Translations under genes and position numbers: made by a program
Assembly (NCBI GenBank): GCA_964019425.1
Contig: OZ025796.1
Location: 62,001-126,000, forward strand
Length of the DNA stretch: 64,000 nt
Direction: 5' to 3'
Source of the DNA: Flectonema sp. DT1601
Taxonomy: Eukaryota
Shown: one piece after another, positions 4,187 to 50,641 of the stretch
Numbering within the stretch: position 1 is the stretch's first letter
Layout of the letters: each line of letters begins with the position of its first letter
Notes under the pieces: model-generated
Databases searched by the model: none
What the model was told of the DNA's origin: nothing
What the model saw: the letters and a program-made list of their open reading frames with translations, nothing else

Positions 4187-4217
<31 letters not shown>

Positions 4218-4560: not shown

Positions 4561-7500
4561 TTAGTTCATTTCATAAATAATTCCGTCAGGTCTCATTATG
4601 TCCTGTTTTGTTTGGTTTTAAATTACCCACAGTAAACACCAGTAAACACCAGTAAACACTTTAAAAAAAACAAATAGTACACACATCCTCATCAGTGAGA
4701 TCCACTGAGATTTCAATAACCTCATTAGAAGTTTCTAAAGCAGCCAACACCTGAGCCTTGGTAGTTACGCGAGTCTTGTCAATCGCAACGATGTGCATTC
4801 CTCTTTCTAAATTACTCTGATGACGATTGCGACACGATGTTATTATCAAATTATCATTAACTTCAATATAAAAAGGTTCAGAATCACCTCTGACTACAAC
4901 ATGAGGAACTTCTCTTAACCTCCCTTGGTTTTCATACCAATTGTCTTGAGTAACACTTTCTCGGAGTTTTCTTAATTTTGTCTTAACGTACCTTATAAAG
5001 TGTACGATGTGCTCACAGAGGACACCTTCAAAAACTCCACAAATAATATGTTCACCCATTAAGACGTCAGATATAATATCCATAAGTGATTGTTTCTGTC
5101 TCGGTTCTCCCAAACTTTTCAAGAAACTGCAGGCAGCGTCACTAACTGCTTCCATCACATCTAAAACTGTATCAGTAGCATGTGATTGCAAGTAACTCCG
5201 ATACCGTTCTTCGATTGTTTCAATTAAAGTTTCAGGTAGTCTCTCATGATATACTAATTCAATGTGTGATGTCAACCAATCACTTTTTTCCATTTTCTCT
5301 AATAGCAATACCATTACTTCTCTGACATGAGATAGTTGAACACCACACAGACTATTAGCAGTCAACGGAATGGTTTTTTTTATCCATCCCTTCCTCACAG
5401 CGTCATACAAACTCTCTGTAGGTTCTGTGTCGCGATCTTTAAATGCTGCAACCAGAACAGACAACAACATTGTAATCTGATCCTCAGAAAATCCCTTCGT
5501 AGCTTCCGTCAAGGTTTTCAGTTGAGGAGTACTAAGACGATTGCAGTGTCTGTCAGGTTGGACAGCAAGCTGTTTTGTTATCATTATTTTTTTTTTTCTG
5601 ACAAGAAAGTAGTAAACCCAACGCTAAGACATACCAAATCAATAGCAGATTGCTCAACTTCGTTAGACACGACGGGTTCTTCAGGATCCAGGAATCGGAA
5701 TGGCTGTTTTAATATTATTTTTTAAACCCATCCAATGTTGTGAAGTAAACACAGAAGTCACATCAAATAACAAAACACACCGCAAGGTAAGGCATTTCAA
5801 TCTTAGGAAGGATCAAACCAGAAGCGAAGCTCAATTCCTTTTCGATGCCGTTCCAGTCGACTTTAAATGAACGCGTCTCAGTGTCGTACTTCGCATGACT
5901 CCTGCACACTTCTCCAAGAGCAGAGTGTCCGAGTTCCTGCAACAGCAGGTCCGGGCGACTCGGTGAGAACGACGACAGGTCAACGTCCTCAATCTGAATC
6001 TTCGTGTGCTTCGCAACAATCGCTTGACACTTGTTGTACTTGTCAGTCAGTGAAGTCAGAGCAGCCTTAATCATATTCTTGTGTTGAGGATAAGGAGAGT
6101 CCGTGAACGTCAACCAGAAGTCCAGTGTTCCCGGCAATCCCGGAATGTTCCCTCCTCTTCGGATGTCATCGATGATCACATTAATTCCTCCCTGTTGACA
6201 TTCGAAATCAATCGGACCCACGTTCGTCATGAACTTGTTCCAGTTTTCTTGAATCCTCTTCAGCTCATCCACAGCTATCAAATACTGCGACTCGTGAGTG
6301 TGCTCTTCGAACAGTTCTAACACCGACCTGAATGGAGTCATCAGTTCATCTTCACCATCCGTGTACTTTAGAAGTAATCTGTTACTCAACATTCTCTGAA
6401 CTCTGTTTGAGAAACTGTACAGATCTGTAAGCAGAGGTGCCAACAACGCCAACTTCACATTCTCGTGGAGCGCCATCGTCAACAGCTCAGGTGTCTCTTC
6501 TGCACTCAAACGCTCAATAGCAGTGCGAATAGAACCCTCTCTCGGTAAGTCCAGAAAGTGTTGAGACTTCCAGTGAGTCAAAACGTTCAACGCGTGACAA
6601 GCGTCTTGTTGTGGTTTTGCGAGGAGCTTTTTGTCATTGTATCTCTGCCACAGAGCTTCGACTTCTCTCTCTGCTTCCATCGCTTCAGCTCTCGATTTGA
6701 AAGATTCCATTTTCAACACATCCGACGTCATCAATTGATGTGAGAAGTATGAAAAGATTTTCTGCGTCTCATCAACTGACAACCCAGTGAAGACTCCCAT
6801 GTGAAGATGGTAGGCAATACTTCTTTCAGTCATTTGATGAACAAGATGACGGTAATCACTAATTCCTTGTTGATATCCATGAATTCGTTCTCTGATAGTC
6901 GGAGAGAACATCCACTCCCACAGAGTTTTGAAGCTTTCCGGCCAGAGAGTCAACTGAATAGCGAGGGCACCGAATTCGACAGCCCACAACAAGTAACAAG
7001 CCCCAGTACTCAGCACCTCCTGTCCTCTGGAATACGAAGCGATCGCTCCGTTCTCATCTAATTGGGTGACGCAATCAAACTTGTAGCAACCTCCGTGTGT
7101 AACATCTCCGCCAGTCTTATCCCCAGGTAGGTAACGATGCTTCTGAGCATCCACATCGAAGAACATTGAGCCCATGAATGACTTCGGGTAGGCGCAAGCA
7201 ACACATAGTGATGTTATTATCACTTCAGTCCAGTCGCTTTTAAATCCTGCCAGTAGTGTTAGTGATATGTCAACTTCACAAGTCGGATAATCTTTTACTC
7301 TCCTCGCATCGAATGCGATGCCCAGCACTCGAAGTAGCTTTGCATCTAATTTAAGAACTTTTGCGAGTTCCTCGTTCTCAAGAAACTTGTCGGCCATTGG
7401 GTGACTGCTATTTTCACCAAAGAAACACTTAAAAGCAGCGTAGTAAAATAATAATCTTGTTGATTCTACTCCACGAATAGGAGCCCAGTCAACAATCATT

Positions 7501-10500
7501 TTCACAACCTTGTTGACTTGTTCCAAACTAGTGCTCTGCATGTCACCTGAGAGCATCATCTCTCTTTGAAGTTGCAAGAATGGAGTGTGAAGAGGATCTT
7601 CAATATCTACAACAAACGGAAGGTCACCAGCTTTTGCCTTCAGAGGTTCTGAGTTCTGACACTTGTGACGCATCGCTTCTCCGCAGATTGTTGGCATTGC
7701 ACCGACTCTGCCGGAATCCGAATCCACAACCTGGTCCTGCATATACAACAGCATCGACTTGGTACCCATTCCTCTCAGTGATCCAATTCCTGATTCTAAT
7801 GTGTTCATGAAAGTGAGTAAAGAGTTTTCTATTTCTAAATCTGGAGGATTGTTAATCAGCTTCAAGTCTTCCTGAGATAATCGTTCTGGACACTTGTAAC
7901 CAGCTGGCTCAAAGATACGCTTCGCTAACTTTGAAATCTTTTCAACTGTTTCATTGTTTTCCATGAATGATGGAGCCCAGTCTCTCTTGTCTTGTTGTTC
8001 AACAGGTCTGATAAAAACAACAGCAAGAGCAATTATAAAAGCAGCTTCCTTAGCCTTCATCATAACTGATAACAATGCTTTCTTACTTGTTGGAGAATCT
8101 TCAAACTCAGACAACATAACATTGTAGCTCTCGCAATTCCTCAAGCATGTGTCGACTAACACGTGCTCAGCATCCATTCCGAGGTCGTTATCATAACAAA
8201 CATCATAGACAGCGAGATACAATTTAGAATTCATCGACTTCTCCGCGTTTTTCCCGTTGGGATTGTAACTCTCGCACTTCGATCCCATCTTCTTCCCGGT
8301 CTCCCCCTCCGCCGCACTCTGAATCCACTTTTGCATCACTCCGTTCTTTGCCAACTCCACTGGAGCTGGAATACTGGATCCACGCGTCTCATTCAGCTGT
8401 CGGATGATCCGAGCAGCCATCGAACGAGTTACGTTGCTGCTGCCCTTCGCAACCACGAGACCGATGACGAACTGAGGAACCTTCGAATCCGATGTGAAAT
8501 CTCTGGAAAGCGATGCCAACTGCAGTGCGACTCTGCATGTCGAAGAGGGGTGCTCCTTGAGAAGGCTCTCAATGATCTTCAGATCAACAGGAACTGTTCC
8601 CTCACTCGCAGTATTGCAACTCGACTTGATAAAACTCTGAAACAGATCAATCGACTTCTTGTTCAGTTTATCGATTCCACTGATCACCGCTCCGATGATC
8701 GACAAGCAAGGCGCATGTTTGCTCTGTACAATCCATTCACTAGTCACTCGATGAAGCATCGATGAGCAAGCAGTCTTGAACTCTCCCAAACGGTTCTCAG
8801 CCATTTCAGGGAACGCTTCCAGCAGTAGCTGAGGACCCAATTCATGGGCAACCCAAGCAGCGTTGTGACCACTTTCCTGACTGATGATAGATGGAGGCTT
8901 CCTCTTATCAAGTGCGCCCATAGCCGCCAGTGGCACCATCGCCATGATGTAGTCATCCACAGCAGCCGACGCAACAGAACACAGAGCACGAATACTCCAA
9001 ACAGTTTCCTCTTTACCAGGAAAGTATAGTTGATGAAGTCCTCTAACTAATTCAAATACCCAGTTCAGAACATTCTCAACGATACGCAAGTCGCTGTATC
9101 TAATTCGACGTCTAATGTGATCACTTAAGAAAGCTAGCACTAACTCTCTATCAGATTGCACAGCGTCAACAAGTTCTCTAACCATTTCATCACCAAATCT
9201 TCTCTCCAACTCAGAGGCTGTTGCGACCACATCAACTGCATTGCTTGCCACTGGAAGGGTCTCAATGATAGATGATGATCCAGGAAGAGATGGCATGGAA
9301 ACACCGACGTAAATCGTATCCAAAGTGCTGACCTTCTTCCTTCTCAGTATGTCGAAAGTCGTCGCCCGTGACGCTACCTCAAGGGCCTTCGCTACAATCG
9401 TGTCACTCTTCGCCAACTCCTTCTCCTTCCCTTTTTGCGATGCAAGACAGAGCAACGCAGAAGCATTCCGGTCATCCAACAAGAACCTCAGCGCAAATGT
9501 CAACAGCGCGCGAGGCGCCTTGTTTTCTTCGTCGATCAACCGTTGCGCCAAACTCAGCGACTGCCCGTCCTGTGCAGCAACTTCCTTCGCCATCTCAACG
9601 AGTTCCAACTCCGTCGGCTGACGGGCTCTGTAGAAGTTCACCACCACCTTCTTCACCTTCGGGCACACCTTGAACAGCTTCTTTGCAATAGCAACCTGCT
9701 CGTCGAACGGCCGCTTCAGGTCGTACAGCGCAGACGCTGGATCCTCCTCCGGAACAGGCACCCACTTGGTCGCAGCCTCGCTCTGCGCCTGCATCAACGT
9801 GTTCATCGCACGGTCCAGCAACACCTCCAGATCCCTCCATTCTGGAATTGGTCTTGGAGCCCTCTTCCCGACGATCATCGGGTCAACGTACTGCTGCAGG
9901 TCGAGCTTCACGTGCTCCGCCGCAGCATCCAGATACACCTGATCCCATCCTGATCCGAACAGTGGAGTGCAGTTACTCGCCTCCGTCAGGTTCGAGTTCT
10001 GGAACGACTGGATGATCACGACTGCTTTGTCTGTCACCATGTCCTTCTCCTTCTCCCGCACATCTGGACGCGAGCTCAGCAAGTACCGCACCTCACGGCA
10101 CTCAGGCTTTCCGAGAGAGTCCGGGCTCATGATTAGCACAAAAACGTACTGCTCCGGATCCGTCGTGAAACGGTACAGCTCCTCCTTCAAGTCCTCCCGC
10201 CCGCGTTCAGATTCCAGCAGCCCGTCCAGAGAAAGGTGCGTCAGGTGCTCGATCGGCTCCAACAGTGACGGGAAGTCTGCGTTCGACGGTGAGAACACCA
10301 CCGACCGAAGCCAGTCCGCATCATCCCCGACTCCGCCCGTGGCTGACGGTGCCACCTTGTCTCGCAGATCTTCCAGGTACCCCGTCAGATCCCAAGGTGC
10401 CAAGTCTCGGAAGTACGCACGCAGGTACGCCGGTGCATCCTTCTTCAGCACTCTCTGAGCCAGAAGCATCCCCTCCGGTTTCAGAACCTGCAACATTCGG

Positions 10501-13500
10501 CAAGAGCTCGCCTTCCACCTCGCGTCGTCTGCGTTGCTCCCAGCCAAGAACCCGTCCAATGCATCGTCGTTTCGGATACGCAAGTTCACCGGCAGGTTCA
10601 TCAGAGTTCCCTGTTGAACCCCTTCCAATATCACAGAGTCGAACGTATCCACATCCGAGTCTCCGAACAGGCAACGATTCCGCACTGCTAGTGTCTTCTG
10701 GAACTTCGCTAACTTCTGCCTCACTTCCATCGCCGCCTCTCTCTCCTCGGGTTTCAGCTTCGCCAACGCGAACTCCAGAATGTCTTGCACCGTAATCGGG
10801 AACTTCTCCAGACGGTTCAGGAACGGAGAAGGCAGCACGTTCCCCATTCCCGTCAGCTCCCTCTTCGTCACGTGCACGATACACTGGAAATCTCGGTGCA
10901 CTCGCTTGTACTCCAGAGCCGCCCCCACAGCCACCGCCACGAAGTGCAGCGTCTCGTTCGCCCCGCTGCTTGCTACCACATAGTTCTGGTTGAACACGTC
11001 GAACAGGCACGCGTCGATGTCTCTCGTGTTGGTCAGCCACACCGTCCGTCCGGCCTCCATCGCCGCCACGATCTGCGACACCACCGTCACAGGCATCAGC
11101 TCGTCCCCGTATGAAAGTGAACTCAACGACAAAACACTCAGGTTGTTGAACTGCTCCACTCCCGTCTGCCGCAGCAGCTGAAGCATCGAACCGTCCTCCG
11201 TCGTGTCCACCAGCAGCTTGAACCGCACCCACATGTCGTTCAGGTTCTTCCCCGAAGCCTTCTCCGTCGCACGGTTGTTGTCCTTCAGCGAGTCGATCAC
11301 CACGTCCAGCTTCCGACGCAGCATCGGCTTCAGCTCATCAACCGAGTACGCCCCGTCCACCTCCCCGAGCGCCTCTCCGAACCTCCGCAGCGCCGCGTCG
11401 AAGTATTCCGAAGGTCCGTTGAAGTTCCGCTCCAACGCCCGCAGCACCAGCTCCGGCGACACCGTGATCAGCCCTTCCCCCGAGTTGTTTCGACGGATGT
11501 ATCGCATCATGTGGAACAAGTCTCGCAACCCAAACCACCAACGGAACTTCAAGCTCGGGTCGAACCCGACCAGCGTCTCCTCCTCGTCTTCCTTCGGAGG
11601 AGGGACCAATCGGTGGAACGCATCGCAGCAAGCCGGGATGATCCGCTTCGACACTTCGCACAGTCCCCGCACCCCGTGCTTGCTCAAGATCCCCGCACAC
11701 ATGTTCGTCAGTTCCTCCGGACGCGGCTTCGCCATGAACACCGTCACGCATCGGTTCCCGATTGCCGTGTCCAGCGACGTGTTCGTCATCAACACCGAAG
11801 CCAAGTTCGCCCCTTCCAGGTAGTAGTGCAGCACCTTCAGCGCCCACTTCCGCTCCACCGTCGCCCCCTTCACCAAACCAGCCTCGTCCACGAACAGCAG
11901 CGTTCGCTTGTTCAGTGTTCCAGAGCTGTCGTTCTCCAATTGCTTCTGGTACGCTTCCTCGCACTTCTTCTTGATCTCGTCCGCGCTGCTCTGCGCGGAT
12001 CCCTGGTAACGGCAGATGTCCGAAATGTGGCAGAAGTCTTTCCAGAACAGTCCGCATCCCTGCATGTTGTCTCGGATGATGTTGTTCGAAAGCGTCTTCG
12101 AAGTCCCCGGAGCTCCCTGCAAGATCACCGCCAACCGCAGCTCGAAGCAAACCATCTGCACGAACAGGTTCTCCATCAGCCCCTGGTGAGCGTACACCGC
12201 ATCCGGAAGCTTCAAGTGGTCGCTGTGGCAGTGGTACGTCACCGCCCGTTGCACCACCGTGTCGAACGCCACTCCCTGCGGGAACGCACGCACTTGCTTC
12301 TCCTCGTCCTCCCCCGCAAGCTGCGACAGCCGCTCCGTCAGCGCCTTCGACAGAGACGCCCGCTGCTCAGGAGGGAACCGGAAGTAGTACGAACACGCCA
12401 TGGCCACCGTCATCGCTGACAGCGTCCGGTCCCAAACATCAGCAGCCTGCTTCCCGTTGAACGAAATGTAGTCCACCCCCTGCTTGTAGAAGAAGTCGAA
12501 CAGCTTCATCGTTCGGTGAATGTCTCGCTGCGAAACCGTCGATCTCTTGTGAGCAACTGCCCGCTGCGCGAACTTGTGCGTGTGCAGCAGCAGGTCCGAC
12601 AGCGCCCGCAGCTGCGACTGACGGATCGATGCCGCGAACAGGTTTCGGTTGCTTCCCATCAGCCGCATGATGAACATCTCCCGTTGGTTCGCCGCCAGCT
12701 GCTTCCACGGAACAATGTGCTCCTTCAGCGCTGGCTGCATCGGAGTCACGTCGAACCCGAGCTTCTCCCCAGACTCCTTCGTCTGCTTCTTCGTCTCCTC
12801 CTCCGGGTACTCCTCCACATCCAGTCCCTCCAGCGACGCGTCCTTCGTCGTCGGGTTCACCGCTCCCAAGAACGACACGTTCGGTGGCAGGATTCCGTTC
12901 GTCTCCGGGTGACTCAACTCCCACTTATCCCAATACCGATCCACCACAATTCTCTTAATCAATCCCAACATGTTCGTAGCATTCATCTCATCGATCATTA
13001 TCATGAAGTTGATCGTCGGACACTTCAAAGCCTTCTCCAGCATCGGAGACATTTGATCGAACAACATATCCACCGTCATGTCGTATCTCATCAGGATGAT
13101 CAGTGAACTCTTCGACCGCTTCAGAGTCAGAGTTCTCCTCAGCAGGTCTGCGAGAGCCTCACCGGAATTCTCACCTCCATCTGAAAGGTCACGGAGGAGA
13201 CTAGGTGGCGGGTCGAGGATCGGAGAAAGTCGAATTTGGTTTCTCAGCTCTGCGCGAACTGCTCGGCACAGGGCAGGACCGTTTGCCTTCGCCGCAGTGA
13301 AAGCTTCCTTAGCCCAGGTTTGAATTCCATCAAAAAGATGTCTTTTGTTTAGAATCGATTCAAATTGTGAAAAACTCGCGCCCGCAAGTTTCCTCATCGT
13401 CTGAGAACTGAGTGCGCTTCCCATGGTGTCACGAATTTGTCCAACGAGGAAACCACCACTCACTCTATTTAATGAATTCACAACTTCTTCGAGTGCGGTA

Positions 13501-16500
13501 TAGAGTTTTTCAGAACGCTCTTTATCATTTCCAATGTCTTTGGGTACTCCAGAGTTTAGTATCTTAACGGAATCCCTAAACTTCTGCTTGCGAGGGTCGT
13601 CTAATATCTCAGCAATGTTTGGATTAGATATTCTGTCATTGATCAGAGGTCCTAAAACATCGTTAACACATTCTCTCAGGTAGTCTAAGGCGTCGAAGTC
13701 ACCCTTGTCTACTAATATTCTCATACATTGAATCGAACGAACACTTCCGTTTGCAAAGTTAGCGTCTACAATGATTCCTGTCTTTCCATATCCGAGACTA
13801 ACGTCAGGTTCTCCGTCAGGAAATAGTTTCTTTAGTTCCTTTGTTTGCTTTACCCATTTCGCAAATGTTGAGATCAAATCATTATGACCTTCTCTCTTTA
13901 CGGCTGCTGATGCATTTGGAGGAAGTTGTAGTAAGTCAGAAAGCATTGTTACAGCGTAACTCTTTCCTGTTCCTGATGGCCCTTGAAGAATTGGTGGATC
14001 CTGAATTCTAAGATGGCAATACATTTGAACTAACTTCTGTAAGAAGTCAGGGATGAGGACGTAGTTTTGTCCTCTCAAAGCCGTCACGGCGCTACGTTTC
14101 TCAATACAAAGTTCATCAGCCAAAGATTCGATGAGTGTGTGAAGTGGTGCAGTGCTTTGCTGTTCGCGTCGTTTTTGAGCAGCGGCACGGAGTTGTTGTT
14201 TCTGACCCTTTTCATCAGATTTGTCTGCTTTCATTTGAAGCATGAAATCCAATCGCTCATCAGTTTCATCGATTATTGCTTGTCGTAGTTTTTGTAATGC
14301 GGTAACAGCTTCCCCCTCAAAAGGTTCTGCAAGCTTGTCCATTGAGAACTCCATTCGTTGTTTGATACCACCACCCATAACAACAATATGATAATTATCC
14401 TTACTATGAGGGAATAACATCGTATGCATTTCATGCATTAATGTTCTTACAACTAGAGCTTGTTTCTTTGTTCTTCTTGCTGAGTCAAGTGATTTTAACT
14501 TTGTTATATACATCTTATATTGGTACACGAGATGCTTTAATGATCTGACTAACATTCTGTTAGTAATAGTTTCCATTTGTAATTCTAATTCCTGTCTTTC
14601 AACTGCCGGTATCGATTCAATCTCAACGGTGTCATGTCCAAGACACATTAGCTTTAATGTATTCAGATCATGTTTATTGTCACTTGGAACATCAGTGAGA
14701 GTATCTTTAATGAAGCTCATTGCTTCTTGAGCACCAGGTACTTCCTTAATATCAAAATCGTCTAAAGTGCCAGCAGTAGCTAAACCAGAACACGCCAACA
14801 GAGTGATATCAGTCATCCCATTTGACCGTTTCCATGGACCATTCACATCCTTTTCTCTTCCGAGAGATTCCTTCGCGTCAGGAGGATGTTGGAACTCGAC
14901 AACCAAATGCCAAGTCTTCTTCGGAATCGAAACGGCCAGACCGCTGTTCGATTCGATCCGACCAAAGAAGATCAGAGAATCCAAAACCTGATTGACGATC
15001 TGAGGGTCACTGTCTTGTCCGACGTGAATCACTAGCAGTCCGTGTCGTTCCCTCATCGGTCCCATCAGCCGAGTGCAGATCTCATCCAGCGAGTTCTTCG
15101 TCGAATCCAAATCCAAGCGAGTCGGTAACACGCTTCCGAACTCTCCAGACTTGATCTTCTTGTCTATCGAATAAGACTTTCCAGTTCCACATCTCTGAAG
15201 GTAGTAAGTGATTGACTTGAAGTTGTTCAGCTCACAGCATCTACCCATCGCCCACTTCTTCCACTTCACGTCACACGACAAGTTGTCCACGTACTCCACA
15301 GTCTCGTCACTCCCATCACCGCCCGTCACCACAGCGATCAGTTCTTTGTGCTCGTGTTTCCCTTCTGTCGCGAGCCGCACCTCATTCTGTTGGTCCGGTG
15401 ACAACAAGTTCAGGTTCATCACAACGAGTCTTCCCTTTTTCGTCTGCTTGTACAGCTGCAGGAACGCCCTCACGTTCTCCGCTGGTGTCTGCGCAGTGCA
15501 GTCCAACACGTGGTAAGGACGCACGTCTCCCTCATGCAGCGCTATCGCAAATAACTTCCTGTCTGACACAGCTAATCTACTGGTGTCTACGATAGCTCCC
15601 TCGACAGTACGAGTCTGCAGTTGTCCGTAACGGGCCGCCGCCGGGTCGTAGTTGCATGAAATTCGAGGGTCCTTCGCGTTCTTGTTCTTCTTCCTCAGAA
15701 TTTGCAACAGTTTTCCGATTCTGTCCAACGTGCTCAGGGCTCCTTCCGCAATCACCGCCTTCGCTACAGCCGTCGACTCCCAATCTGTGAACATCTCCAG
15801 TCCGTTCGTTGAACCCTCGGCTGCCTCCCTCAGTGCGATACGGAGCTCAGCCGCTCGGCAGACTGCGCCAGTCGATTTCTCGATTGTGTGCCAGACAGCG
15901 AGTTCGTCTTCAGTCATGGAGTCCATTGAAGACTTTGAAACAGTCGCCTGAAGTTGTACAGCAGGTCGAAAGTCAACAGATTGAAGTTCTGGAATATTAC
16001 TTTTATTAGCACTTTCCCAACCAGTACCAAATTCATGGCGGTTCCAATACAGACCTGAAGCATCTTGTTTTAACTCTTCAAGTGATGAGCAGGCCAATAC
16101 ATTAACTCTCGCTCCTTCACGCCAACTCTTACCATCTCCCCAAGTCCACTTCGTACAGTAGTGTGGGAATGGTTGATCCATTGAAGACATGTACAGCCCT
16201 TCGGTATTCTTTCCATTTTTAAAGGAAACCACCCATCTCTGCACATTCGAATCTCTGCTGAGGCGAAGTTCATCATTTTCATAAATGACGAATCCCTTCT
16301 TGTCAGTCTGCTTCTGAAGTGTCAGAATACCACCAGGACGAGACTTTGATACGACTCTGATACAATAAGGCTTCTCTTGGAATCCATCAACAACAGTCCA
16401 TCTCAGAGGTTCTGATCCAATCCTCGCTGTTCCCTTGCACGGGTTCGACCAAGCAACAGGTCTTTCTGCAGCATCAGTGACGCACCAACGACCGTCCCAA

Positions 16501-22727: not shown

Positions 22728-22767
22728 TTTATTTCAACTGTTGAAAAAGAGAAGTCATCCATTGTTT

Positions 22768-23103: not shown

Positions 23104-23270
23104 TTGACCTGATGTGTGAATTATATTATGATAAAGTTTATAAAAAATAAAAATAAAAATTATAATTATATATGTGTTTTTGTTTCCATAAGGGAACATA
23201 AGTGCACCAGGGGTTTGAATGTTTGAATTTACAAAATACAAACATAGCGACCATTCAACAATCTGTTAAG

Positions 23271-25511: not shown

Positions 25512-25549
25512 TTAAAGGAAAATTAAAAAAAGGAAAAACTATTTTTGGG

Positions 25550-27180: not shown

Positions 27181-27211
<31 letters not shown>

Positions 27212-37400: not shown

Positions 37401-40400
37401 AACGGCCGCTTCAGGTCGTACAACGCAGAAGCTGGATCCTCCTCCGGAACAGGCACCCACTTGGTCGCAGCCTCGCTCTGCGCCTGCATCAACGTGTTCA
37501 TCGCACGGTCCAGCAATACCTCCAGATCCCTCCATTCTGGAATTGGTCTTGGAGCCCTCTTCCCGACGATCATCGGGTCAACGTACTGCTGCAGGTCGAG
37601 CTTCACGTGCTCCGCCGCAGCATCCAGATACACCTGATCCCATCCCGATCCGAACAGTGGAGTGCAGTTACTCGCCTCCGTCAGGTTCGAGTTCTGGAAC
37701 GACTGGATGATCACAACTGCTTTGTCTGTCACCATGTCCTTCTCCTTCTCCCGCACATCGGGACGCGAGCTCAGCAAGTACCGCACCTCACGGCACTCAG
37801 GCTTTCCGAGAGAGTCCGGGCTCATGATTAGCACAAAAACGTACTGCTCCGGATCCGTCGTGAAACGGTACAGCTCCTCCTTCAAGTCCTCCTGTCCGCG
37901 TTCAGATTCCAGCAGCCCGTCCAGAGAAAGGTGCGTCAGGTGCTCGATCGGCTCCAACAGTGACGGGAAGTCTGCGTTCGACGGTGAGAACACCACCGAC
38001 CGAAGCCAGTCCGCATCATCCCCAACTCCGCCCGTGGCTGACGGTGCCACCTTGTCTCGCAGATCCCGCAGGTACCCCGTCAGATCCCAAGGTGCCAAGT
38101 CTCGGAAGTACGCACGCAGGTACGCCGGTGCATCGCTCTTCAGCACTCTCTGAGCCAGAAGCATCCCCTCCGGTTTCAGAACCTGCAACATTCGGCAAGA
38201 GCTCGCCTTCCACCTCGCGTCGTCTGCGTTGCTCCCAGCCAAGAACCCGTCCAATGCATCGTCGTTTCGGATACGCAAGTTCACCGGCAGGTCCATCAGA
38301 GTTCCCTGTTGAACCCCTTCCAGTATCACAGAGTCGAACGTATCCACATCCGAGTCTCCGAACAGGCAACGATTCCGTACCGACAGCGTAGTCTGGAACT
38401 TCGCTAACTTCTGCCTCACTTCCATCGCCGCCTCTCTCTCCTCGGGTTTCAGCTTCGCCAACGCGAACTCCAGAATGTCTTGCACCGTAATCGGGAACTT
38501 CTCCAGACGGTTCAGGAACGGAGAAGGCAGCACGTTCCCCATTCCCGTCAGCTCCCTCTTCGTCACGTGCACGATACACTGGAAATCTCGGTGCACTCGC
38601 TTGTACTCCAGAGCCGCCCCCACAGCCACCGCCACGAAGTGCAGCGTCTCGTTCGCCCCGCTGCTCGCTACCACATAGTTCTGGTTGAACACGTCGAACA
38701 GGCACGCGTCGATGTCTCTCGTGTTGGTCAGCCACACCGTCCGTCCGGCCTCCATCGCCGCCACGATCTGCGACACCACCGTCACAGGCATCAGCTCGTC
38801 CCCGTATGAAAGTGAACTCAACGACAAAACACTCAGGTTGTTGAACTGCTCCACTCCCGTCTGCCGCAGCAGCTGAAGCATCGAACCGTCCTCCGTCGTG
38901 TCCACCAGCAGCTTGAACCGCACCCACATGTCGTTCAGGTTCTTCCCCGAAGCCTTCTCCGTCGCACGGTTGTTGTCCTTCAGCGAGTCGATCACCACGT
39001 CCAGCTTCCGACGCAGCATCGGCTTCAGCTCATCAACCGAGTACGCCCCGTCCACCTCCCCGAGCGCCTCTCCGAACCTCCGCAGCGCCGCGTCGAAGTA
39101 TTCCGAAGGTCCGTTGAAGTTCCGCTCCAACGCCCGCAGCACCAGCTCCGGCGACACCGTGATCAGCCCTTCCCCCGAGTTGTTTCGACGGATGTATCGC
39201 ATCATGTGGAACAAGTCTCGCAACCCAAACCACCAACGGAACTTCAAGCTCGGGTCGAACCCGACCAGCGTCTCCTCCTCGTCTTCCTTCGGAGGAGGGA
39301 CCAATCGGTGGAACGCATCGCAGCAAGCCGGGATGATCCGCTTCGACACTTCGCACAGTCCCCGCACCCCGTGCTTGCTCAAGATCCCCGCACACATGTT
39401 CGTCAGTTCCTCCGGACGCGGCTTCGCCATGAACACCGTCACGCATCGGTTCCCGATTGCCGTGTCCAGCGACGTGTTCGTCATCAACACCGAAGCCAAG
39501 TTCGCCCCTTCCAGGTAGTAGTGCAGCACCTTCAGCGCCCACTTCCGCTCCACCGTCGCCCCCTTCACCAAACCAGCCTCGTCCACGAACAGCAGCGTTC
39601 GCTTGTTCAGTGTTCCAGAGCTGTCGTTCTCCAATTGCTTCTGGTACGCTTCCTCGCACTTCTTCTTGATCTCGTCCGCGCTGCTCTGCGCGGATCCCTG
39701 GTAACGGCAGATGTCCGAAATGTGACAGAAGTCTTTCCAGAACAGTCCGCATCCCTGCATGTTGTCTCGGATGATGTTGTTCGAAAGCGTCTTCGAAGTC
39801 CCCGGAGCTCCCTGCAAGATCACCGCCAACCGCAGCTCGAAGCAAACCATCTGCACGAACAGGTTCTCCATCAGCCCCTGGTGAGCGTACACCGCATCCG
39901 GAAGCTTCAAGTGGTCGCTGTGGCAGTGGTACGTCACCGCCCGTTGCACCACCGTGTCGAACGCCACTCCCTGCGGGAACGCACGCACTTGCTTCTCCTC
40001 GTCCTCCCCCGCAAGCTGCGACAGCCGCTCCGTCAGCGCCTTCGACAGAGACGCCCGCTGCTCAGGAGGGAACCGGAAGTAGTACGAACACGCCATGGCC
40101 ACCGTCATCGCTGACAGCGTCCGGTCCCAAACATCAGCAGCCTGCTTCCCGTTGAACGAAATGTAGTCCACCCCCTGCTTGTAGAAGAAGTCGAACAGCT
40201 TCATCGTTCGGTGAATGTCTCGCTGCGAAACCGTCGATCTCTTGTGAGCAACTGCCCGTTGCGCGAACTTGTGCGTGTGCAGCAGCAGGTCCGACAGCGC
40301 CCGCAGCTGCGACTGACGGATCGATGCCGCGAACAGGTTTCGGTTGCTTCCCATCAGCCGCATGATGAACATCTCCCGCTGGTTCGCCGCCAGCTGCTTC

Positions 40401-43400
40401 CACGGAACAATGTGCTCCTTCAGCGCTGGCTGCATCGGAGTCACGTCGAACCCGAGCTTCTCCCCGGACTCCTTCGTCTGCTTCTTCGTCTCCTCCTCCG
40501 GGTACTCCTCCACATCCAGTCCCTCCAGCGACGCGTCCTTCGTCGTCGGGTTCACCGCTCCCAAGAACGACACGTTCGGTGGCAGGATTCCGTTCGTCTC
40601 CGGGTGACTCAACTCCCACTTATCCCAATACCGATCCACCACAATTCTCTTAATCAATCCCAACATGTTCGTAGCATTCATCTCATCGATCATTATCATG
40701 AAGTTGATCGTCGGACACTTCAAAGCCTTCTCCAGCATCGGAGACATTTGATCGAACAACATTTCCACCGTCATGTCGTATCTCATCAGGATGATCAGTG
40801 AACTCTTCGACCGCTTCAGAGTCAGAGTTCTCCTCAGCAGGTCTGCGAGAGCCTCACCGGAATTCTCACCTCCATCTGAAAGGTCACGGAGGAGACTAGG
40901 TGGCGGGTCGAGGATCGGAGAAAGTCGAATTTGGTTTCTCAGCTCTGCGCGAACTGCTCGGCACAGGGCGGGACCGTTTGCCTTCGCCGCAATGAAAGCT
41001 TCCTTAGCCCACCTTATGGAACCGTCAAGGGAATGCTTTTTCGTAAGAATACTTTGCATTTGGCCATAACTAGCACCTGCAAAGCTCTTCATCTGAGATG
41101 AACTCAATACGCTTCCCATGGTGTCACGAATTTGTCCAACAAGAAATCCTCCACTTACGATGGCTAGTGACCTTACAATCTCATCGAGGGAAGCAAAAAT
41201 CTTTTCTGCTGCCTCCTTGTCTTTTCCCTCTTCTCTTTCAACTCCGTCTTTCATGATAGCAATGGCATCTCTGAATGCTTGTTTTCTAGGGTTGTCAACA
41301 ACATCAGCAATGTTCGGATTAGATATTCTGTCAGCAATAAGAGGTCCTAAAACATCGTTAACACATTTTCTCAGGTAGTCTAAGGCGTCGTAGTCACCCT
41401 TGTCAGCTAACAGTCTCATACATTGAACTGGAGGATGCTTAGCCTCTTCCATAGTCGCTTCAAGCATGATTCCCATCTTTCCAATCTTAACATCAGCATC
41501 ACCATCAGGGAATAGTTTCTTTATGCCGGGATCAGTTCTGATGAATTTATTGAAGACCGCAATTAAATCATTGTGACCTTCTCTTTTAAATGCTGCTGAT
41601 GCATTTGGAGGAAGCTGCAACAACTCAGAAAGCATAGCAACAGCGTAACTCTTTCCTGTTCCTGATGGCCCTTGAAGAATTGGTGGATCCTGAATTCTAA
41701 GATGGCAATACATTTGAACTAACTTCTGTAAGAAGTCAGGGATGAGGACGTAGTTCTTTCCTCGAAGAGCGGTGAGGGCAGTTTTCTTTTCGATGCAAAC
41801 TTCATCAGCCAAACTATCAATTAATGAATAAAGAGGTGCACGAGAACGTTCAAGACGTTGTTTCTCAGCCATCTCACGAAGTCTCTCTTTTTGCTTAACA
41901 GTGTCCGTCTTGTCAGCTTTCATAGATATCATAAAGTCAATACGTTCTTCAGACTCATCGATCATTGCTTTTTTAAGTTTTTGAATAGCAGTCACTGGCT
42001 CTCCTTCAAAACGTTGATTAAGCTGATCAATTGAAAATTCCATTCGTTGTTTGATGGTACCAGTCATTACAACAATATGAACATTATCCTTACTATCAGG
42101 GTTAATCATCGTATGCATTTCATGCATAAATGTTCTTACGACTAGAGCTTGTTTCTTTGTTCTTCTCAGAGAGGCTGGGTCTCTCTGTTTGTGAGTATAC
42201 ATCTTATATTGGTACACAAGATGCTTTAATGATCTGACTAACATTCTGTGAGTTATCTTTTCTAACTCTAATTCTAAGTCAAGCTTTTGGATTTCAGGAA
42301 GAGAATCGACTTCAACAGTGTCATGTCCAAGACACATTAGTTTAAGTGATGTGACATCATGTTTACTATCACTTGGTATGTCTTGTAAGTTATCTTTAAT
42401 CCACTCAACTGCTTCTTGAGCACCAGGTACAGCATTTATATCGAAGTTCTCGAGAGCTCCAGCAGTAGCTAAACCAGAACACGCCAACAGAGTGATATCA
42501 GTCATCCCATTTGACCGTTTCCATGGACCATTCACATCCTTTTCTCTTCCGAGAGATTCCTTCGCGTCAGGAGGATGTTGGAACTCGACAACCAAATGCC
42601 AAGTCTTCTTCGGAATCGAAACGGCCAGACCGCTGTTCGATTCGATCCGACCAAAGAAGATCAGAGAATCCAAAACCTGATTGACGATCTGAGGGTCACT
42701 GTCTTGTCCGACGTGAATCACTAGCAGTCCGTGTCGTTCCCTCATCGGTCCCATCAGCCGAGTGCAGATCTCATCCAGCGAGTTCTTCGTCGAATCCAAA
42801 TCCAAGCGAGTCGGTAACACGCTTCCGAACTCTCCAGACTTGATCTTCTTGTCTATCGAATAAGACTTTCCAGTTCCACATCTCTGAAGGTAGTAAGTGA
42901 TCGACTTGAAGTTGTTCAGCTCACAGCATCTACCCATCGCCCACTTCTTCCACTTCACGTCACACGACAAGTTGTCCACGTACTCCACAGTCTCGTCACT
43001 CCCATCACCGCCCGTCACCACAGCGATCAGTTCTTTGTGCTCGTGTTTCCCTTCTGTCGCGAGCCGCACCTCATTCTGTTGGTCCGGTGACAACAAGTTC
43101 AGGTTCATCACAACGAGTCTTCCCTTTTTCGTCTGCTTGTACAGCTGCAGGAACGCCCTCACGTTCTCCGCTGGTGTCTGCGCAGTGCAGTCCAACACGT
43201 GGTAAGGACGCACGTCTCCCTCATGCAGCGCTATCGCAAACAACTTCCTGTCTGACACAGCTAATCTACTGGTGTCTACGATAGCTCCCTCAACAGTACG
43301 AGTCTGCAGTTGTCCGTAACGGGCCGCCGCCGGGTCGTAGTTGCATGAAATTCGAGGGTCCTTCGCGTTCTTGTTCTTCTTCCTCAGAATTTGCAACAGT

Positions 43401-46400
43401 TTTCCGATTCTGTCCAACGTGCTCAGGGCTCCTTCCGCAATCACCGCCTTCGCTACAGCCGTCGACTCCCAATCTGTGAACAGTTCTAGTCCGTTCGTTG
43501 AACCCTCGGCTGCCTCCCTCAGTGCGATACGGAGCTCAGCCGCTCGGCAGACTGCTCCAGTCGATTTCTCGATTGTGTGCCAGACAGCGAGTTCGTCATC
43601 GGTCAGTTTATCGGTTGCAACCTTCGAAACCAAATCATTCTTTATGTTTACTATTGCCTGGAGCTGGACAACAGACTTTAGTTTACGAACAGCTAATTCA
43701 GGAAGATCAATACTCATAGCGTTATCCCAACCGGTACCAAATTCATGGCGGTTCCAATACAGACCTGAAGCATCTTGTTTTAACTCTTCAAGTGATGAGC
43801 AGGCCAATACATTAACTCTCGCTCCTTCACGCCAACTCTTACCATCTCCCCAAGTCCACTTCGTACAGTAGTGTGGGAATGGTTGATCCATTGAAGACAT
43901 GTACAGCCCTTCGGTATTCTTTCCATTTTTAAAGGAAACCACCCATCTCTGCACATTCGAATCTCTGCTGAGGCGAAGTTCATCATTTTCATAAATGACG
44001 AATCCCTTCTTGTCAGTCTGCTTCTGAAGTGTCAGAATACCACCAGGACGAGACTTTGATACGACTCTGATACAATAAGGCTTCTCTTGGAATCCATCAA
44101 CAACAGTCCATCTCAGAGGTTCTGATCCAATCCTCGCTGTTCCCTTGCACGGGTTCGACCAAGCAACAGGTCTTTCTGCAGCATCAGTGACGCACCAACG
44201 ACCGTCCCAATAAGTCATTCTGTATTTTCCATCTTTTCTGTTGTAGGTAGGAATCCATCTTCTGTAGAGACCATCACAGACGCCATCACTACCCTTACCT
44301 GAAGTAGTTGGAGTGGTTCCCTTAACTACAACTGATGCGCTTTGTACATCCGAAATTGACTGAGGTCCAGCAGAGCTGACGAAAGTACACTTCACATCCT
44401 TTCCGTTGATTACAACATAGGGAACAAGAGGACCATCAGCTCTCGGGAAATCCTTAGTAGTAACGGAGTTAAACATACGCTCTCCGTCACAGAGACAACC
44501 GATTGTGCCCTCTCCCAAGTCAACAGTGAAGGTAAATGTGAACTCTTGAGAGTTTTGGTTTGTTGTAGTTCCCATGTTACTTGAGTTCTTAAGAATGAAA
44601 ACACTTCCATTCTGCTTCAGTCGCATACCAAACATTGAAGTTTCTGGGTCTGTTGCCTTATCAAGTGAAACACCTGGAGCAGCAACACCAATACTCAGAA
44701 ATTCATTAAGAGAACGACCCTTTGCGTGGATGGAGAATGTATGAGGACCTGGTCCTACCATTACTCTGTTTCCTAATGCTACCGTTGGTGATTCAGTCTC
44801 TGATGTCACAGTTGGTCCATCGATCTTCAATCCCTTTCCGATTTGTACCGAATTCCAACCCAATACCTCATCGACTGGCTCACCAGGACTGATGACCGCT
44901 TTAGCAGTCTTATTGACTAGGTAAACACAAGGCCTTAAGCTTCCCTTGACTTCGGTAAACCGAGCAAGGTTTCTCCTACCGTTTAACTTGAAGTCGATTG
45001 TCTTCGCTTTCTGATCATAAATAACGGTGATGATATCACCACTTCGGAATGCTCTGGCGTTGTCAACATCGAGTCCATTGTGTCTGAGAGTACCATTTCT
45101 CATATACCAATAGGCACTCTCTTTGTTGGGAGACTCGTCTACCGGCTTTCCAAGATCAAGGTCCTTCGTACAGAGACCTATTCTTGAAGCAAAGACGTCA
45201 CCTGTGATCTTTATTCTCCAAACCTTGGCAGGTGCCGGGGAGATAGCAATGGCAGGTGCTGTGCCACGTACTTTGACAATTTCTCTTCCGTTAGCAGAGA
45301 TATCGGCTGATTTTGAACACACCAACCAAATATAAGCAGGAATTACTGTGGCTGTAAAGTTTGGTTTTGATTTCGTTGCTTCAGAACGGAACTCTTTTGC
45401 GAGATCAGAAATCTTTTTAGTTCTTTTGTTATTAACTGCAACGATACGCATGCCTGCTTCGAATCCAACGGATTCCCACAGTGAGAATTCCGGGCAGTCA
45501 GTTATGTAAAGTGTGCTCGCCATCTCCTTCAGTCCGAGGGATTTCAATGAACTTCCGCACTGAACGTGAATGTTGTGTTCCGCACCTCTGCAATCATCAG
45601 ACCACTTCTCAACAATCGTGAATGCATCGTCAGCCTGTACTTTTGCGTTCAAACAAGGCTGTTCGTTTAAGAATCCGTGACTGTCACTTTCCCTCCAGTC
45701 ACCCATCTGCCATGGCTGAAGGTAAGATTCATTATCAGACATCGATACTAATAATCTCCTCGCGTTCATTACAGGTTTATCATACACAACCCATCCACCA
45801 GCAACAGGAGAGAGTACTAATCCGTCTTCACGTTTGTACATCCAGAGACCCTTTTCAAACTCTCCATCACAGACACCAAGTCCTTCAAATAGTAAAGGTT
45901 CGTTGTCTTCAGGGAGCTTTCCCACCACCGATACTCCCCTCTTAGAATGCAGTGGTGTTGTTTTAACTCTGATAGAGACATCCTCAATTGATCCTCCCTC
46001 TTGAACGGCACTTGTTTTCTCAACGCGTTGAATCATTTTCATCTTTCCCTTTCTCCAGTTTTGTAAACGACTCACGTCTTGTACGAAGTTGCTTAACGCA
46101 GCAGTACTTCTCATTAACTCAGCAGTTCTCACAAGCTCAGCAGGAGTGACACAGATAATCTCCGGGTACTTCTGACACATTTTCACAAACAGGGAAGTCG
46201 TGCTCTCGGAGTCCTTCGCCCACTGGCCCTCCAATGACTGCAGCATCTGAGTCAGACGAGCAGCGTCATCATGTCTGAAAGTGATTCTCCTCGATCTGAA
46301 CTCAATGTGACCCTCACTGAAGAGGGCACACGCCGTGTTGAAAGCCCTCATCACCTCACGTGCTTGGTTAGCGAACACTTCCAATGAACTGTGCTCATTA

Positions 46401-49400
46401 CGCTGCAACGTCGCTCTGTAGACAAGATCACTGTACTCAGCCATGTTTCGCAACTTACCGTCGTGAGCATCGAATTCGAGAGCAGGTTGCCCAGTTGTTG
46501 GGAGGTTGATGATAATCAAAGCAGCACTTCTATCAATGTAGTCATCCTCATCAACTTGAATACCTTCCGGGATTCCCTGAAGTCCTGATGCGTAGTGACA
46601 GACGATTATCATTCTGTCTGTAGTTCCTGACTGTTCTTTAATCATCTTCACTAGTTTCTCAATCTCATCAACAGCAGTCATCTTCTCAAGCTTCTTTTGA
46701 ATGTTTCGCACGTCTTGCAGGGTGTCATCTCCAAATGAGTTGTTCATCAGCGACCAGAACCCATCGCCAGTGATATCAGACCCAGCCACGAACCCACTGT
46801 TCGAAATAGGAATTCTCATCTCAACACCACTGTAGGGGATGTCACCTTGCTCACCAGCGTCTCTCTTGTCTTGAATTAATTGTGATCTCCTCTCATTGAA
46901 TTGCTCTACGTATGCTGAAGACGCCCACACGAATGGATTCACAAAGTTTGTCAAGTTGAAGAAAGTCTGGAAAGAAGCGTGTTGCAAATCTCTAGAGTTC
47001 GAAAGAACTGATGCAAGACCTTCATCCTGTGCTTCAGGGTTCTCACGAGTGAATTCAACCAACTCCGTACAGTTGTACACCGTCCTCATGATTTCCAGAA
47101 CACGGTGCTCACAACCACAACTCACTCGCTTGATTTCAGTCGAACGTATCTTCGCATCTTTCAACGTCACCTTCGACAAGTCATCGTCGAGAAGGATACG
47201 TTTTTCAGTTTCGTTGAAGAACTGCGAGTGGAATCTCAAATCCTTTTGAGGAGAGTTCACCATTTTTCTCAGAATTTCCAAGTCGTGTACGACAAAACGA
47301 AGAGGAAGACCTCCGTCAAGGAGAGCATCGATGGCTTCTGGGTCTGTGCCGATCCGCTCCATCAGAGCCTTCTCTTGTCTTTTTCTACCCTGCTCGTAGT
47401 TTCCATCAGGCGGGTGAAGCCCAGCAACAGCCTGTTCGATGGTGCTATCCAATTTGATACTTGACAGAGACTTGCAAGCATCTCTGAAAGAATTTTGGAA
47501 TTCAGCCAGTGAGACTCCCTTGTTGTCACACAGAATGAGAAAGTGTGCTCGCAGTAACGGACTCGATGTAGCATGCGGTAGAGTAAGAGCTTCTCCGAGT
47601 GTCACACCAGCCTTCTTCACCAGCTTCTCGAGATCATCCAAGTTCACGAGTTCCTTGCGTACAATGGATTCCGTAAATTCATTCAAAAGTTCTCCCGCTC
47701 CTTTAACTTCCCATTGCTCTACGAGTTCCCTCAGTACATTACCGCTGTGCTCAAGGTTCTTAATAGGGGCGTTGAAGTCAAGTTCTGGAAATGTGATTCC
47801 ATTACGTTCATGAATTCCACTGTGCTGTTTAGATAAAGAGTACACATGTCGACTGATGCGGTGACTATTCAATCGATTTTGGAATTCTTTAGTAGCTGTT
47901 TCGATTCTCTTAGTGAACGCACCTACCGGAGTGTACTTACTCTTCAACAGCTGAACGAGATTTACGTCAATTGGAATGGAGTCCCACTTAACAGAACGTG
48001 AGTCAAAGTAAACAGACAGCAGGGCATCTGCAGCATCAGCACGAATACCCTTGAATCTTGCCATCTCTTGAACATCACCTTTTATTCTATCAGAAGAAAA
48101 GATCCAGTTGTCGAGTTCGTGAACCTTTTGAGTGATTACGATTCTCTCACAGCACAGTCTCCAGAGATTCAAAATGAAGTCACCGTAATCCTTTGAGTGA
48201 TCTTTTCTATCACGATCAGCAAATACTCTTTTAATTAAACCAACTGACGGAACACCTGAATGAGTCTCTAGCCATCTAGCATCCCATTGAGAGATGTTAT
48301 CTCTTAGCATTGGGAAACAGGCAGCAATGGCTTGCTTACCCCAGACACAAGAAGCGGTCACTACTGAAGATCTTTCATACTTACACAAGTGTTGATCCAT
48401 ACCGGAACTCCAGTAACCAGTTACTGTATCAGGGCTTCGTACAGCTCCTTGAACCATTGAAAGAACTACAGCGAATGTTTTGTCTCTAGGTTCGTGCATA
48501 TCGATGTCAGCCATTGAGAACCTCTCTGACCTTTTCTCTTTCTTCACCGTAATTCTAAATCTCAGTTCGAGATCACTGTACTTCACATCAGATACGATTC
48601 CAGATGAAAGAGCTGGATGGTTCAAAGCAATATGATGACCAGTTATTTTAAAGGCTTCAGGATAGTTTCGATTATTAAATCCATTCAACCAAGTCCATCC
48701 TCCATCAAAATCATGACGAGACACGAGAGAGAGTGCATTGACAACAGCAAGTGGGTCACCACTCTGACGAACTTCTGTCTGTGTGATGAGCTTCAGGGAA
48801 GCCATCACACCAGTTGGTGTTGGCTGCAGATCTTTCTCTTCGAATGCCAACCCGTATATGGATATTAAATTGACGCAAGGATGTCTCATCGCTTGACTGT
48901 GCAGCCATCCCTTCGGACCAGAAATCGTTCCCTTCAACTTCGTATCGGAATCCTCAATCGCACGAAGTACTACGATCAGAGTCTCCGGATAGCAGTGGCG
49001 GACATTAAACTTGTCTCCCCTGTCTCCAAGAAACTGTAACAGTGACGATGCGAATCCAGGTAACTCGCTGAACGCCTTCTTACACTTATCGTACAGGTCA
49101 GGGGCAGGAGGTGCCTTCAAAGAGGTTTGAAGAATTCTCGAAGCGAATGCGACGACAGTTTCTCCACCAATTTCATCCTTTTGGAAAATAAATTTCCAAA
49201 CCTTGTCCGTGTTCCTCTCTTGAAGGATAACTGAAAGCTTTGTGTGCTCGCTGTACGAATGATGGTCCATTGAAGGAAGGGGTAACCAGAGTAGGAAGTC
49301 CTCGAGCCCGATACCAAAGTGAGGAATTATTTTACTCACAGGACACTGAGGAAATTGCTCACTTTCCAGCTTAAAGCACTTCGTCAGCTGGGGTTCGCTG

Positions 49401-50641
49401 CCCGAACAGATGAACTCGACTACTATGTTGTCGTGGCTCTTCTGGTTGAACCGAAGTTCAATTCCGTGGTCGCAAACCCATCTTCCGATAATAGCGCGCT
49501 CTCCTCCTCCTCTGCGTCCTCTTCCCACACCAACGCCGTCCTCACCAAGATCAGTATTTCCGCCGCCACGACCTGCTTCCTGTTTAGCCTGTTCGATACG
49601 AGAATCGTCACCTAACAGATTCCAAACCTCCTCAGGAGGAACTCCGTCTGCAGCGTGATGCAAAATGTTATCGGCCTCATTATTATCGAGCAACACTGGT
49701 CCAAAATCATCCGATCTTGGAGCCGTAGACTTTGGGTTTGCCTGCCACAATAGCAACTCCGCAGCACGTCTGCTGTCGACAGGAGCTTCGAGAAGCTCAG
49801 AAATAATCTTTATCCATTTTTGTTGAGTCAGACGCATAGAAGCAATGTACTCCATCAGGTAAGCGAAGGCTGCAGCAGCGTGCTTACCGTATGGAAGTCT
49901 GCGAGCCCATTCCTTTATTTTTTTGACACAACTTTCGGATAGCCTGCTCTCTCTAATAAGTCCCAAGTCCTGTAGACCTCTCTCACGGTGAGTACTGGCT
50001 TCAGCCATTCTGATACAGGCCGAGGTAATCATTTCATAAATAGCAAGTCTGTCTCTTGAGATAGCATCCACTAAGTGTTGCTCATCTTCTGTGCATCGCT
50101 CATTGGCTACAATACCCTTCAGGACTTCATGTACGCAGATCATTATCGTAAGTACCACTGAGCTTGTTGTTTTTTTGTACTCTTCACATAATTTTCGTGT
50201 TTCAAAAGTAACTTGTTGGACAGTCTTGTAGAATTTTCCCACAATCGGTACTCTGATTGCTGTTTTCCCGTGATCTGAGTACTCCTTTCCGTTCCTAGAG
50301 AGGGAAACAGCGAATCCATTGAAGATGAAAGAAGCGCATTCCTCGTGCCACTTTCCTTTCATGATTTCCGTAAGGAAACGAGTCCAGTTCACAGCAGCTT
50401 CTGTAAGAAGGTGGGGCTCTGCAGGAGGCTCTCTCATGACGACAATATCGTCGAGACCCATTCCTCCTAACCCCATCATCCCACCTATCCCACCCCCCAA
50501 ACCCATCATTCCTCCCATTCCTCCCATGCCCATCCCTCCCATTCCCATCCCTCCCATGCCCATCATTCGGCCTCCGGGATACCCACCACCCGCCCGCCGT
50601 CGATCCCTCATCATCCGTTCCCTTTCAATGTCTCTCCTCAT
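31445..50641 (-). CDS. Giant RNF213/mysterin-like multi-AAA+ ATPase, paralog B (~6,250 aa). Predicted exons 50641-33467, 33343-33275, 33161-32265, 32203-32117, 32047-31985, 31900-31445
   Basis: 5744-aa ORF with the same AAA motif series as paralog A; first ATG at 50641. Five phase-0 GT..CAG introns link it in frame to the ORFs at 32241-33134 and 31445-31843. The first two intron positions are identical to paralog A and the third is at an equivalent position. Confidence 0.88.

Follow-up and report, generated by a model that had tools for sequence, protein, structure and literature searches.

In mammalian RNF213 (mysterin), ubiquitin ligase (E3) activity depends on the cysteine of the RZ finger and on the C-terminal domain, and not on the RING, according to PMC12075652 and PMC11549300, and AAA3 and AAA4 are the two ATPase sites called competent in the mouse protein in PMC7311170. 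In two preprints, the RZ-finger ligase ZNFX1 provides a precedent for an ATPase-coupled, cysteine-based E3 acting in defence (bioRxiv 2025.09.05.674436, 2025.10.14.682297). Here we describe two giant genes, gene 1 and gene 2 (G1 and G2), in a 64,000-nt window of Flectonema sp. DT1601 (contig OZ025796.1, positions 62,001 to 126,000), within which all positions are counted. Their products belong to the RNF213 family by ATPase core and E3 scaffold and are not RZ-finger ligases. We see an even chance that these AAA+ giants, devoid of zinc fingers, are ATP-gated ubiquitin ligases acting through an Asp-Cys loop. No description of a zinc-free RNF213 was found in the literature searched, which left out most subscription papers and supplements (e.g. 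PMC12075652 Supplementary Fig. 11a). A search of the same reach found no literature on RNF213 in diplonemids, and only unrelated work combining RNF213 with rotifers.

Two giant genes of the RNF213 family

The minus strand of the window contains two long open frames, of 5,656 (G1) and 5,747 (G2) codons, which extend into the following gene models.

4561..22727, minus strand: G1, zinc-free RNF213-type protein, 5,980 aa, 4 exons (22727-5781, 5703-5635, 5569-4685, 4602-4561), introns GT-AG 3/3; frames plus junctions matched to F. neradi proteins
31445..50641, minus strand: G2, 6,248 aa, 6 exons (50641-33467, 33343-33275, 33161-32265, 32203-32117, 32047-31985, 31900-31445), introns GT-AG 5/5; exon model

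Both models are free of internal stops, and their exon junctions, small exons and both C-terminal tails are consistent with transcript-derived Flectonema neradi proteins. G2 is 83% identical to G1 across the aligned part and carries an additional C-terminal tail of ~200 aa. The two co-oriented giant paralogs named in a preliminary description of this DNA, made from the sequence alone, are thus confirmed, including the G1 stop at 4561. Kinship with RNF213 was examined over the following regions of G1.

9858..15530, minus strand: AAA core, aa ~2400-4290; PDB search, profile comparison
13959-13982 and 12981-13001, minus strand: AAA3 Walker A and Walker B, intact; motif check
12093-12116 and 11877-11897, minus strand: AAA4 Walker A and Walker B, intact; motif check
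13113..13925, minus strand: ~270-aa insertion between AAA3 Walker A and Walker B, differing between the paralogs; motif spacing
6258..9860, minus strand: region in place of the RNF213 E3 module, no RING; fold model from aa 4990 onward
4961..6260, minus strand: region matching the RNF213 C-terminal domain, to which the ubiquitin-conjugating enzyme (E2) docks, and preceding helices; hhalign

Compared with PDB sequences, the AAA core matched RNF213 chains at expectation values (E) of 1e-18 to 1e-22, nine of the ten listed matches being RNF213 and the tenth a chance match, while neither dynein nor midasin chains were matched at E<=1 or E<=10. Comparison with a profile of 14 RZ-type proteins gave probabilities of 96.8% for AAA1-3 and 100% for AAA3-6, and 56% for the region just after the core. 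By sequence, Walker motifs A and B of AAA3 and AAA4 are present in both genes. The Walker A-B spacing in AAA3 is 327 aa, compared with 64 aa in axolotl RNF213, and the intervening insertion has no Pfam match.

Beyond the core, phmmer with G1 aa ~4000-5650 found no PDB match at E<=10. The predicted structure of aa 4990-5649 (predicted local distance difference test score, pLDDT, 78.8) returned RNF213 chains as all eight Foldseek matches at E<=0.001 (E 2.2e-9), and VIA aligned 501 of its residues to human RNF213 4323-4977, a range which includes the RZ finger, at Z 22.2, the next best match reaching Z 6.1. A wide VIA search of 48,161 representatives returned no chain at Z>=8 (best 6.8) and no RNF213 row, a result which excludes nothing. 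The C-terminal region aligned with RNF213 by hhalign at a probability of 98.5% (E 2.8e-15, 346 columns), and the motifs ENWNKF, LTSLTDKYN and VDWNGIEKEL occur in both genes within this alignment. The preliminary assignment to RNF213 is thus supported for the core, which matches neither dynein nor midasin, for the C-terminal motifs and for the modelled segment; nor are close orthologues untranscribed, several being known from transcriptomes. The first 1,450 residues are not alignable to RNF213 (profile comparison of aa 1-1500 with RZ-type RNF213, probability <=0.5%), and aa 1-1500, examined for the stalk and the CBM20 domain found at the RNF213 N-terminus, also lack a Pfam match.

The zinc-free loop and its spread

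Loss of the RING and RZ finger, on which the preliminary description was silent, is evident in both genes. Neither has a Pfam RING or a RING pattern, and a single CxxC follows the core. The RZ finger (PF20173) is present in 0 of 21 aligned members, which share no Pfam domain in the E3 region, and no RZ pattern occurs in G1 or G2. Its slot, which has the same flanking sequences, is occupied by a loop of ~40 residues.

7008..7130, minus strand: zinc-free loop of G1 at the place of the RZ finger, with Asp5218-Cys5219 (Cys encoded at 7071-7073); alignments, profile
34757..34774, minus strand: G2 Asp-Cys counterpart, Cys5292, codon 34766-34768; motif check
6198..6200, minus strand: G1 Cys5510, second highly conserved cysteine; alignment

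The loop does not keep the C-H-C-C zinc ligands of the RZ finger and is modelled without helix or strand. All 24 of 24 close relatives have Asp5218 and Cys5219 unchanged, and in 35 rows the positions up to 25 residues from Cys5219 show no further conserved Cys or His. Cys5510 is kept in all 33 rows covering it, RZ-type proteins also having a Cys at the aligned place.

A search with G1 aa ~2300-5650 yielded 47 proteins from 6,102 candidates; a search for short relatives yielded one protein only. The best matches were G2's own frame (P0001) and transcript-derived F. neradi proteins (84% over G1 aa ~2300-5650), together with transcript-derived proteins of Diplonema japonicum, D. ambulator and Namystynia karyoxenos, and with D. 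papillatum DIPPA_20689 and DIPPA_23115. By these matches the organism, a marine flagellate, is probably a diplonemid near F. neradi. Among the matches, diplonemid species have at least 2-4 paralogs each. A profile of the loop region, searched against 1.84 billion representatives, gave 59 matches, of which 50 proteins were aligned; none has an RZ pattern. Of the 34 that span the site, 32 have Cys in the column, or 30 of 32 when seed proteins are set aside; one of the other two has its Cys shifted by one column, and one has lost it. In 26 distant rows, from which seed, likely diplonemid, fragment and unclassified rows (21 ids) were excluded, Asp and Cys are the top two of 401 columns at 25/26 each (median column 0.27), a count to be read with the bias of profile matches toward rows keeping seed-invariant residues. 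Carriers named among 20 looked up are Lacrimia, Entosiphon, Willaertia, Rhizamoeba and Rotaria, one further carrier being labelled only 'hemicentin'. A further search recovered 32 bdelloid-rotifer clusters, 28 with Cys, two with Ser, one misaligned and one not reaching the site. The two bdelloid paralogs with Ser, P0157 and P0158, constitute natural controls. Another bdelloid member, P0166, has immunoglobulin and fibronectin-III Pfam matches and may be a gene-model fusion.

Unrooted LG+G4 trees built from just the ATPase core separate zinc-free from RZ proteins by one branch (14 vs 8 rows, support 100/100), and the split persists when five bdelloid rows are added (Shimodaira-Hasegawa support 100). 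The position of P0025, on a long branch in one tree, was ignored, and three zinc-free rows without the anchor motif were omitted from another. P0028, a 6,049-aa RNF213-like protein with VWA and additional AAA matches, is placed on the zinc-free side, and the Asp-Cys loop was not found in it. D. papillatum has both the zinc-free and the RZ type. Judged from sequence, a zinc-free RNF213 subfamily is widespread, comprising euglenozoan, heterolobosean and bdelloid-rotifer proteins. The expanded, lineage-specific family proposed earlier survives in part, the expansion being modest and the family not confined to one lineage. Searches of the Atlas found nothing with the window's own sequences, and homologue P0097 gave no usable feature match, its structure rows (TM<0.4) coming from a poor model.

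Added modules, mosaic paralogs and neighbouring genes

Both proteins carry an insert of PDZ and SPRY domains and a further PDZ-like domain near the C-terminus, the latter absent from the preliminary description.

15888..18335, minus strand: G1 insert, aa ~1465-2280 (~815 aa), directly before the first AAA unit; blast gap vs P0020-P0023, model pLDDT 79
17928..18200, minus strand: first small beta-rich unit in the G1 insert; matches unit 2 in a profile comparison (96.6% probability)
17613..17870, minus strand: G1 insert PDZ domain, aa ~1620-1705; fold model match
17157..17615, minus strand: G1 SPRY 1; Pfam PF00622, fold model
16650..17159, minus strand: G1 SPRY 2, within a patch that differs between the paralogs; fold model
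16062..16634, minus strand: G1 beta-rich units 2 and 3; model, unit 3 weakly similar (probability 2-6%)
43502..46084, minus strand: G2 PDZ-SPRY-SPRY insert; Pfam, alignment
4691..4930, minus strand: G1 C-terminal PDZ-like domain, weak, follows the C-terminal domain; counterparts, no Pfam match in G1
32271-32531, minus strand: G2 C-terminal PDZ-like counterpart; Pfam PDZ_2 E 0.03

The earlier proposal of PDZ-SPRY-SPRY inserts was borne out, the two SPRY domains by Pfam (E 1e-16) and the PDZ domain, weak in Pfam (E 0.05-0.2; PDZ_6 E 0.047), by its model, which superposes on the Dishevelled-3 PDZ (8s6a_B) at Z 11.0 with a root-mean-square deviation (rmsd) of 2.1 over 82 of 86 residues. SPRY 1 resembles the HERC1 SPRY (Z 19.5, rmsd 2.1, 146 aligned) and SPRY 2 the TRIM16L PRY-SPRY (Z 16.8, rmsd 2.2, 149 aligned). 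The beta-rich units have no assigned Pfam family, and a match to MVL (E 0.017 across 17 residues) was not trusted. The C-terminal PDZ-like domain reaches Pfam E 4e-4 to 0.1 in relatives. Insert architecture is conserved across 16 aligned proteins, and Namystynia relatives lack the insert, their sequences running straight across the insertion point. By sequence comparison only some of the diplonemids have the SPRY insert, and no other group does, and accessory domains (SPRY, PDZ, SAM, WWE) vary across the zinc-free subfamily. P0020-P0026, assigned to Namystynia for the four looked up, are zinc-free without a SPRY insert; one has a Pfam SAM match and others end in similar tails.

Identity between G1 and G2 is a mosaic, also not mentioned earlier. 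Near-identical tracts total 3,567 codons, with a proportion of synonymous differences (pS) of 0.018, and include 23 base-for-base identical runs of at least 60 codons, whereas divergent patches total 2,379 codons with pS 0.60 and a nonsynonymous proportion (pN) of 0.25. Divergence affects, among other parts, the N-terminus, SPRY 2, the insertion within AAA3 and the last portion of the C-terminal domain together with its PDZ, whereas shared tracts contain the Walker motifs as well as the Asp-Cys loop. In nine F. neradi isoforms several patches, like the tails, are represented in each of the two versions, other patches being of G2 type only, and some tracts identical between G1 and G2 reach just 67-80% identity with F. 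neradi. Such alternation of nearly identical tracts with patches of old divergence fits gene conversion, and since the F. neradi isoforms hold both patch versions and both tails, the duplication likely predates the species split, with conversion occurring later.

The remaining features of the window are as follows.

1114-3891, minus strand: gene with a VWA domain (VWA_3 in Pfam, E 6e-15) and a long tail rich in Gln and Pro, immediately downstream of G1
22768..23103, no strand: exact 33-bp tandem repeat (minisatellite), 10.2 copies, located 40 bases upstream of the start codon of G1; repeat search
24289-26463, minus strand: transposon remnants between G1 and G2, with a DDE-type zinc finger (E 0.04) and a frame without Pfam match which, by a motif, resembles a piece of Penelope-type reverse transcriptase
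50960-54085, minus strand: calpain-like gene, upstream neighbour of G2 (Pfam)
54712-56703, minus strand: FAD glycerol-3-phosphate-dehydrogenase-like gene, upstream of G2 (Pfam)
57061-58077, minus strand: GCD14-type tRNA methyltransferase gene, upstream of G2 (Pfam)
58599-60691, minus strand: MULE/MuDR transposase split among several frames
60964-61530, minus strand: 188-aa frame with weak histone-fold matches (PF00808 E 0.0016, 39-82; PF00125 E 0.055, 112-162), by sequence possibly a histone doublet-like protein
62955-63998, minus strand: class-V aminotransferase gene, presumably cysteine-desulfurase-like, cut by the window end

Candidate mechanism, alternatives and known systems

A lone, near-invariant cysteine, carried at the active-site slot by a loop without regular structure and adjacent to an E2-docking fold that is kept, suggests that catalysis takes place at the Asp-Cys loop, which from position and conservation we consider slightly favoured. 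As in mammalian RNF213, ATP bound at AAA3 and AAA4 would turn the enzyme on, E2~ubiquitin would dock onto the C-terminal domain, and ubiquitin would move to Cys5219 as a thioester and then onto a target, with Asp5218 or another residue replacing the lost His base. More speculatively, the PDZ and SPRY modules would choose targets or partners, a cytosolic bacterium, or the compartment it occupies, might be the target, and gene conversion might hold the motor in common while variable patches preserve two specificities. Some diplonemids carry cytoplasmic bacteria, as stated in PMC5845003. A defence role for the two proteins would rest on analogy, the RZ finger responsible for lipopolysaccharide ubiquitylation in animals being absent here, and in our judgement falls a little short of an even chance. 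A wider reading is tentative and rather doubtful, namely that this is an old eukaryotic RNF213 subfamily with a zinc-free, His-free ubiquitin-transfer site, coexisting with the RZ type in the same genomes, multiplied in bdelloid rotifers and diplonemids and serving cell-autonomous defence, with diplonemid PDZ-SPRY-SPRY sensor cassettes kept paralog-distinct by patchwork gene conversion.

Several observations weigh against these proposals. The fold match of the E3 scaffold has a high overall rmsd of 21 A, and the sequence profile of the E3 region fails to recover RNF213 from the PDB, returning two chance matches. Where vertebrate rows have a Trp, G1, G2 and protist P0032 have another residue; by its spacing, this Trp is tentatively the equivalent of mouse W5097, presumably an E2-contact residue together with E5108. 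The register of Cys5219 is ambiguous, as one alignment places it on the RZ nucleophile (human C4516) and another on the fourth zinc ligand, which the window scores, all with means <=0, slightly favour; our first reading, that Cys5219 plainly equals the RZ nucleophile, is weakened by these. No His occurs at a shared position within 25 residues of the Cys in 35 rows. In PMC12075652, mouse RNF213 needs all four RZ zinc ligands, the loss of any abolishing activity, and loss of His4483, needed for full activity, lowers it. The loop Cys is lost in P0091, labelled Hpha and read as Hemistasia, which has a WWE domain, and is replaced by Ser in two of the 30 properly aligned bdelloid proteins; the bias of the profile matches noted above also tempers the conservation counts. 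With pN below pS, the divergent patches give no indication of positive selection.

Foremost among the alternatives is the possibility, real though improbable on balance, that Cys5219 is a structural remnant of the fourth RZ zinc ligand, binding metal or bonding elsewhere, for example to Cys5510, in which case the protein would be an ATP-driven scaffold with no ligase activity of its own or in need of a partner ligase. The second alignment and window scores, the conservation of Cys5510, the lack of a conserved His near Cys5219 and the apparent loss of the E2-contact Trp agree with such a remnant; however, no second Cys or His is conserved close to Cys5219, the model shows neither helix nor strand in the loop, RZ-type proteins, whose zinc site is complete, have Cys5510 too, and the entire C-terminal domain is kept. 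The lost His and Trp would also suit a loop that transfers another ubiquitin-like protein, or a hydrolytic site, but its position adjoining the kept E2-docking fold and the lack of a match to any other catalytic fold (best Z 6.8) make this very improbable.

An active ligase with a housekeeping role in lipid droplets, protein quality control or the feeding or flagellar apparatus, whose PDZ and SPRY domains would bind host proteins, is unlikely though still to be taken seriously. Purifying selection in the divergent patches, modest copy number, the conserved insert architecture and a separate RZ-type copy in D. papillatum that could cover defence agree with it, whereas long-lived paralog pairs with variable surface patches, changing accessory domains and the many bdelloid copies fit, without proving, conflict-driven evolution. 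Least probable of all is that the mosaic is an assembly artefact of collapsed or cross-polished repeats. A synonymous difference of 1.8% over the 3,567 codons would suit such an origin, but scattered differences persist within the tracts, F. neradi transcript isoforms show G1-type and G2-type forms of the two tails and of a number of these patches, and some shared tracts are only 67-80% identical to F. neradi.

If G1 and G2 are indeed ligases acting through the Asp-Cys loop, they would form a candidate class of cysteine E3 not recognised by Pfam. Since every RZ zinc ligand is required in mammals, a widespread natural RNF213 version without them directly tests the minimal active site, and whether catalytic loops can be exchanged on the scaffold. 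D. papillatum, which holds both RNF213 types and is described as genetically tractable in PMC5845003, offers a testable handle on protist cell-autonomous immunity.

Of the described systems, mammalian RNF213 (PDB 6tax, 7oik, 8s24, 9jwg) shares with G1 and G2 the AAA core, in which the motifs of AAA3 and AAA4 are intact, the predicted E3-module scaffold, the C-terminal domain and the overall domain order. In contrast, G1 and G2 lack the RING, have a short Asp-Cys loop in place of the RZ finger and His base, have an N-terminal arm that is not alignable, and add the ~815-aa insert before AAA1, the ~270-aa AAA3 insertion and the C-terminal PDZ-like domain. The protist RZ-type proteins (D. papillatum DIPPA_15027, P0032; Mesostigma-labelled P0037) share the RNF213 core and the absence of a Pfam RING but keep the RZ finger (PF20173) and lie on the opposite side of the ATPase tree. 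TRIM B30.2/PRY-SPRY domains share the SPRY fold, those of TRIM16L, TRIM25 and TRIM14 being the best matches of SPRY 2; identity is however 8-23%, and a common fold says nothing on ligand. ZNFX1, likened by description only, differs in being a superfamily 1 (SF1) helicase whose zinc-dependent RZ has a Cys/His pair. HECT and bacterial novel E3 ligase (NEL; IpaH/SspH) enzymes use a single cysteine nucleophile without zinc, and NEL enzymes a nearby Asp; their folds differ and none was matched in the structure searches with the E3 model, so that the likeness of the Asp-Cys loop to them would be one of mechanism only.

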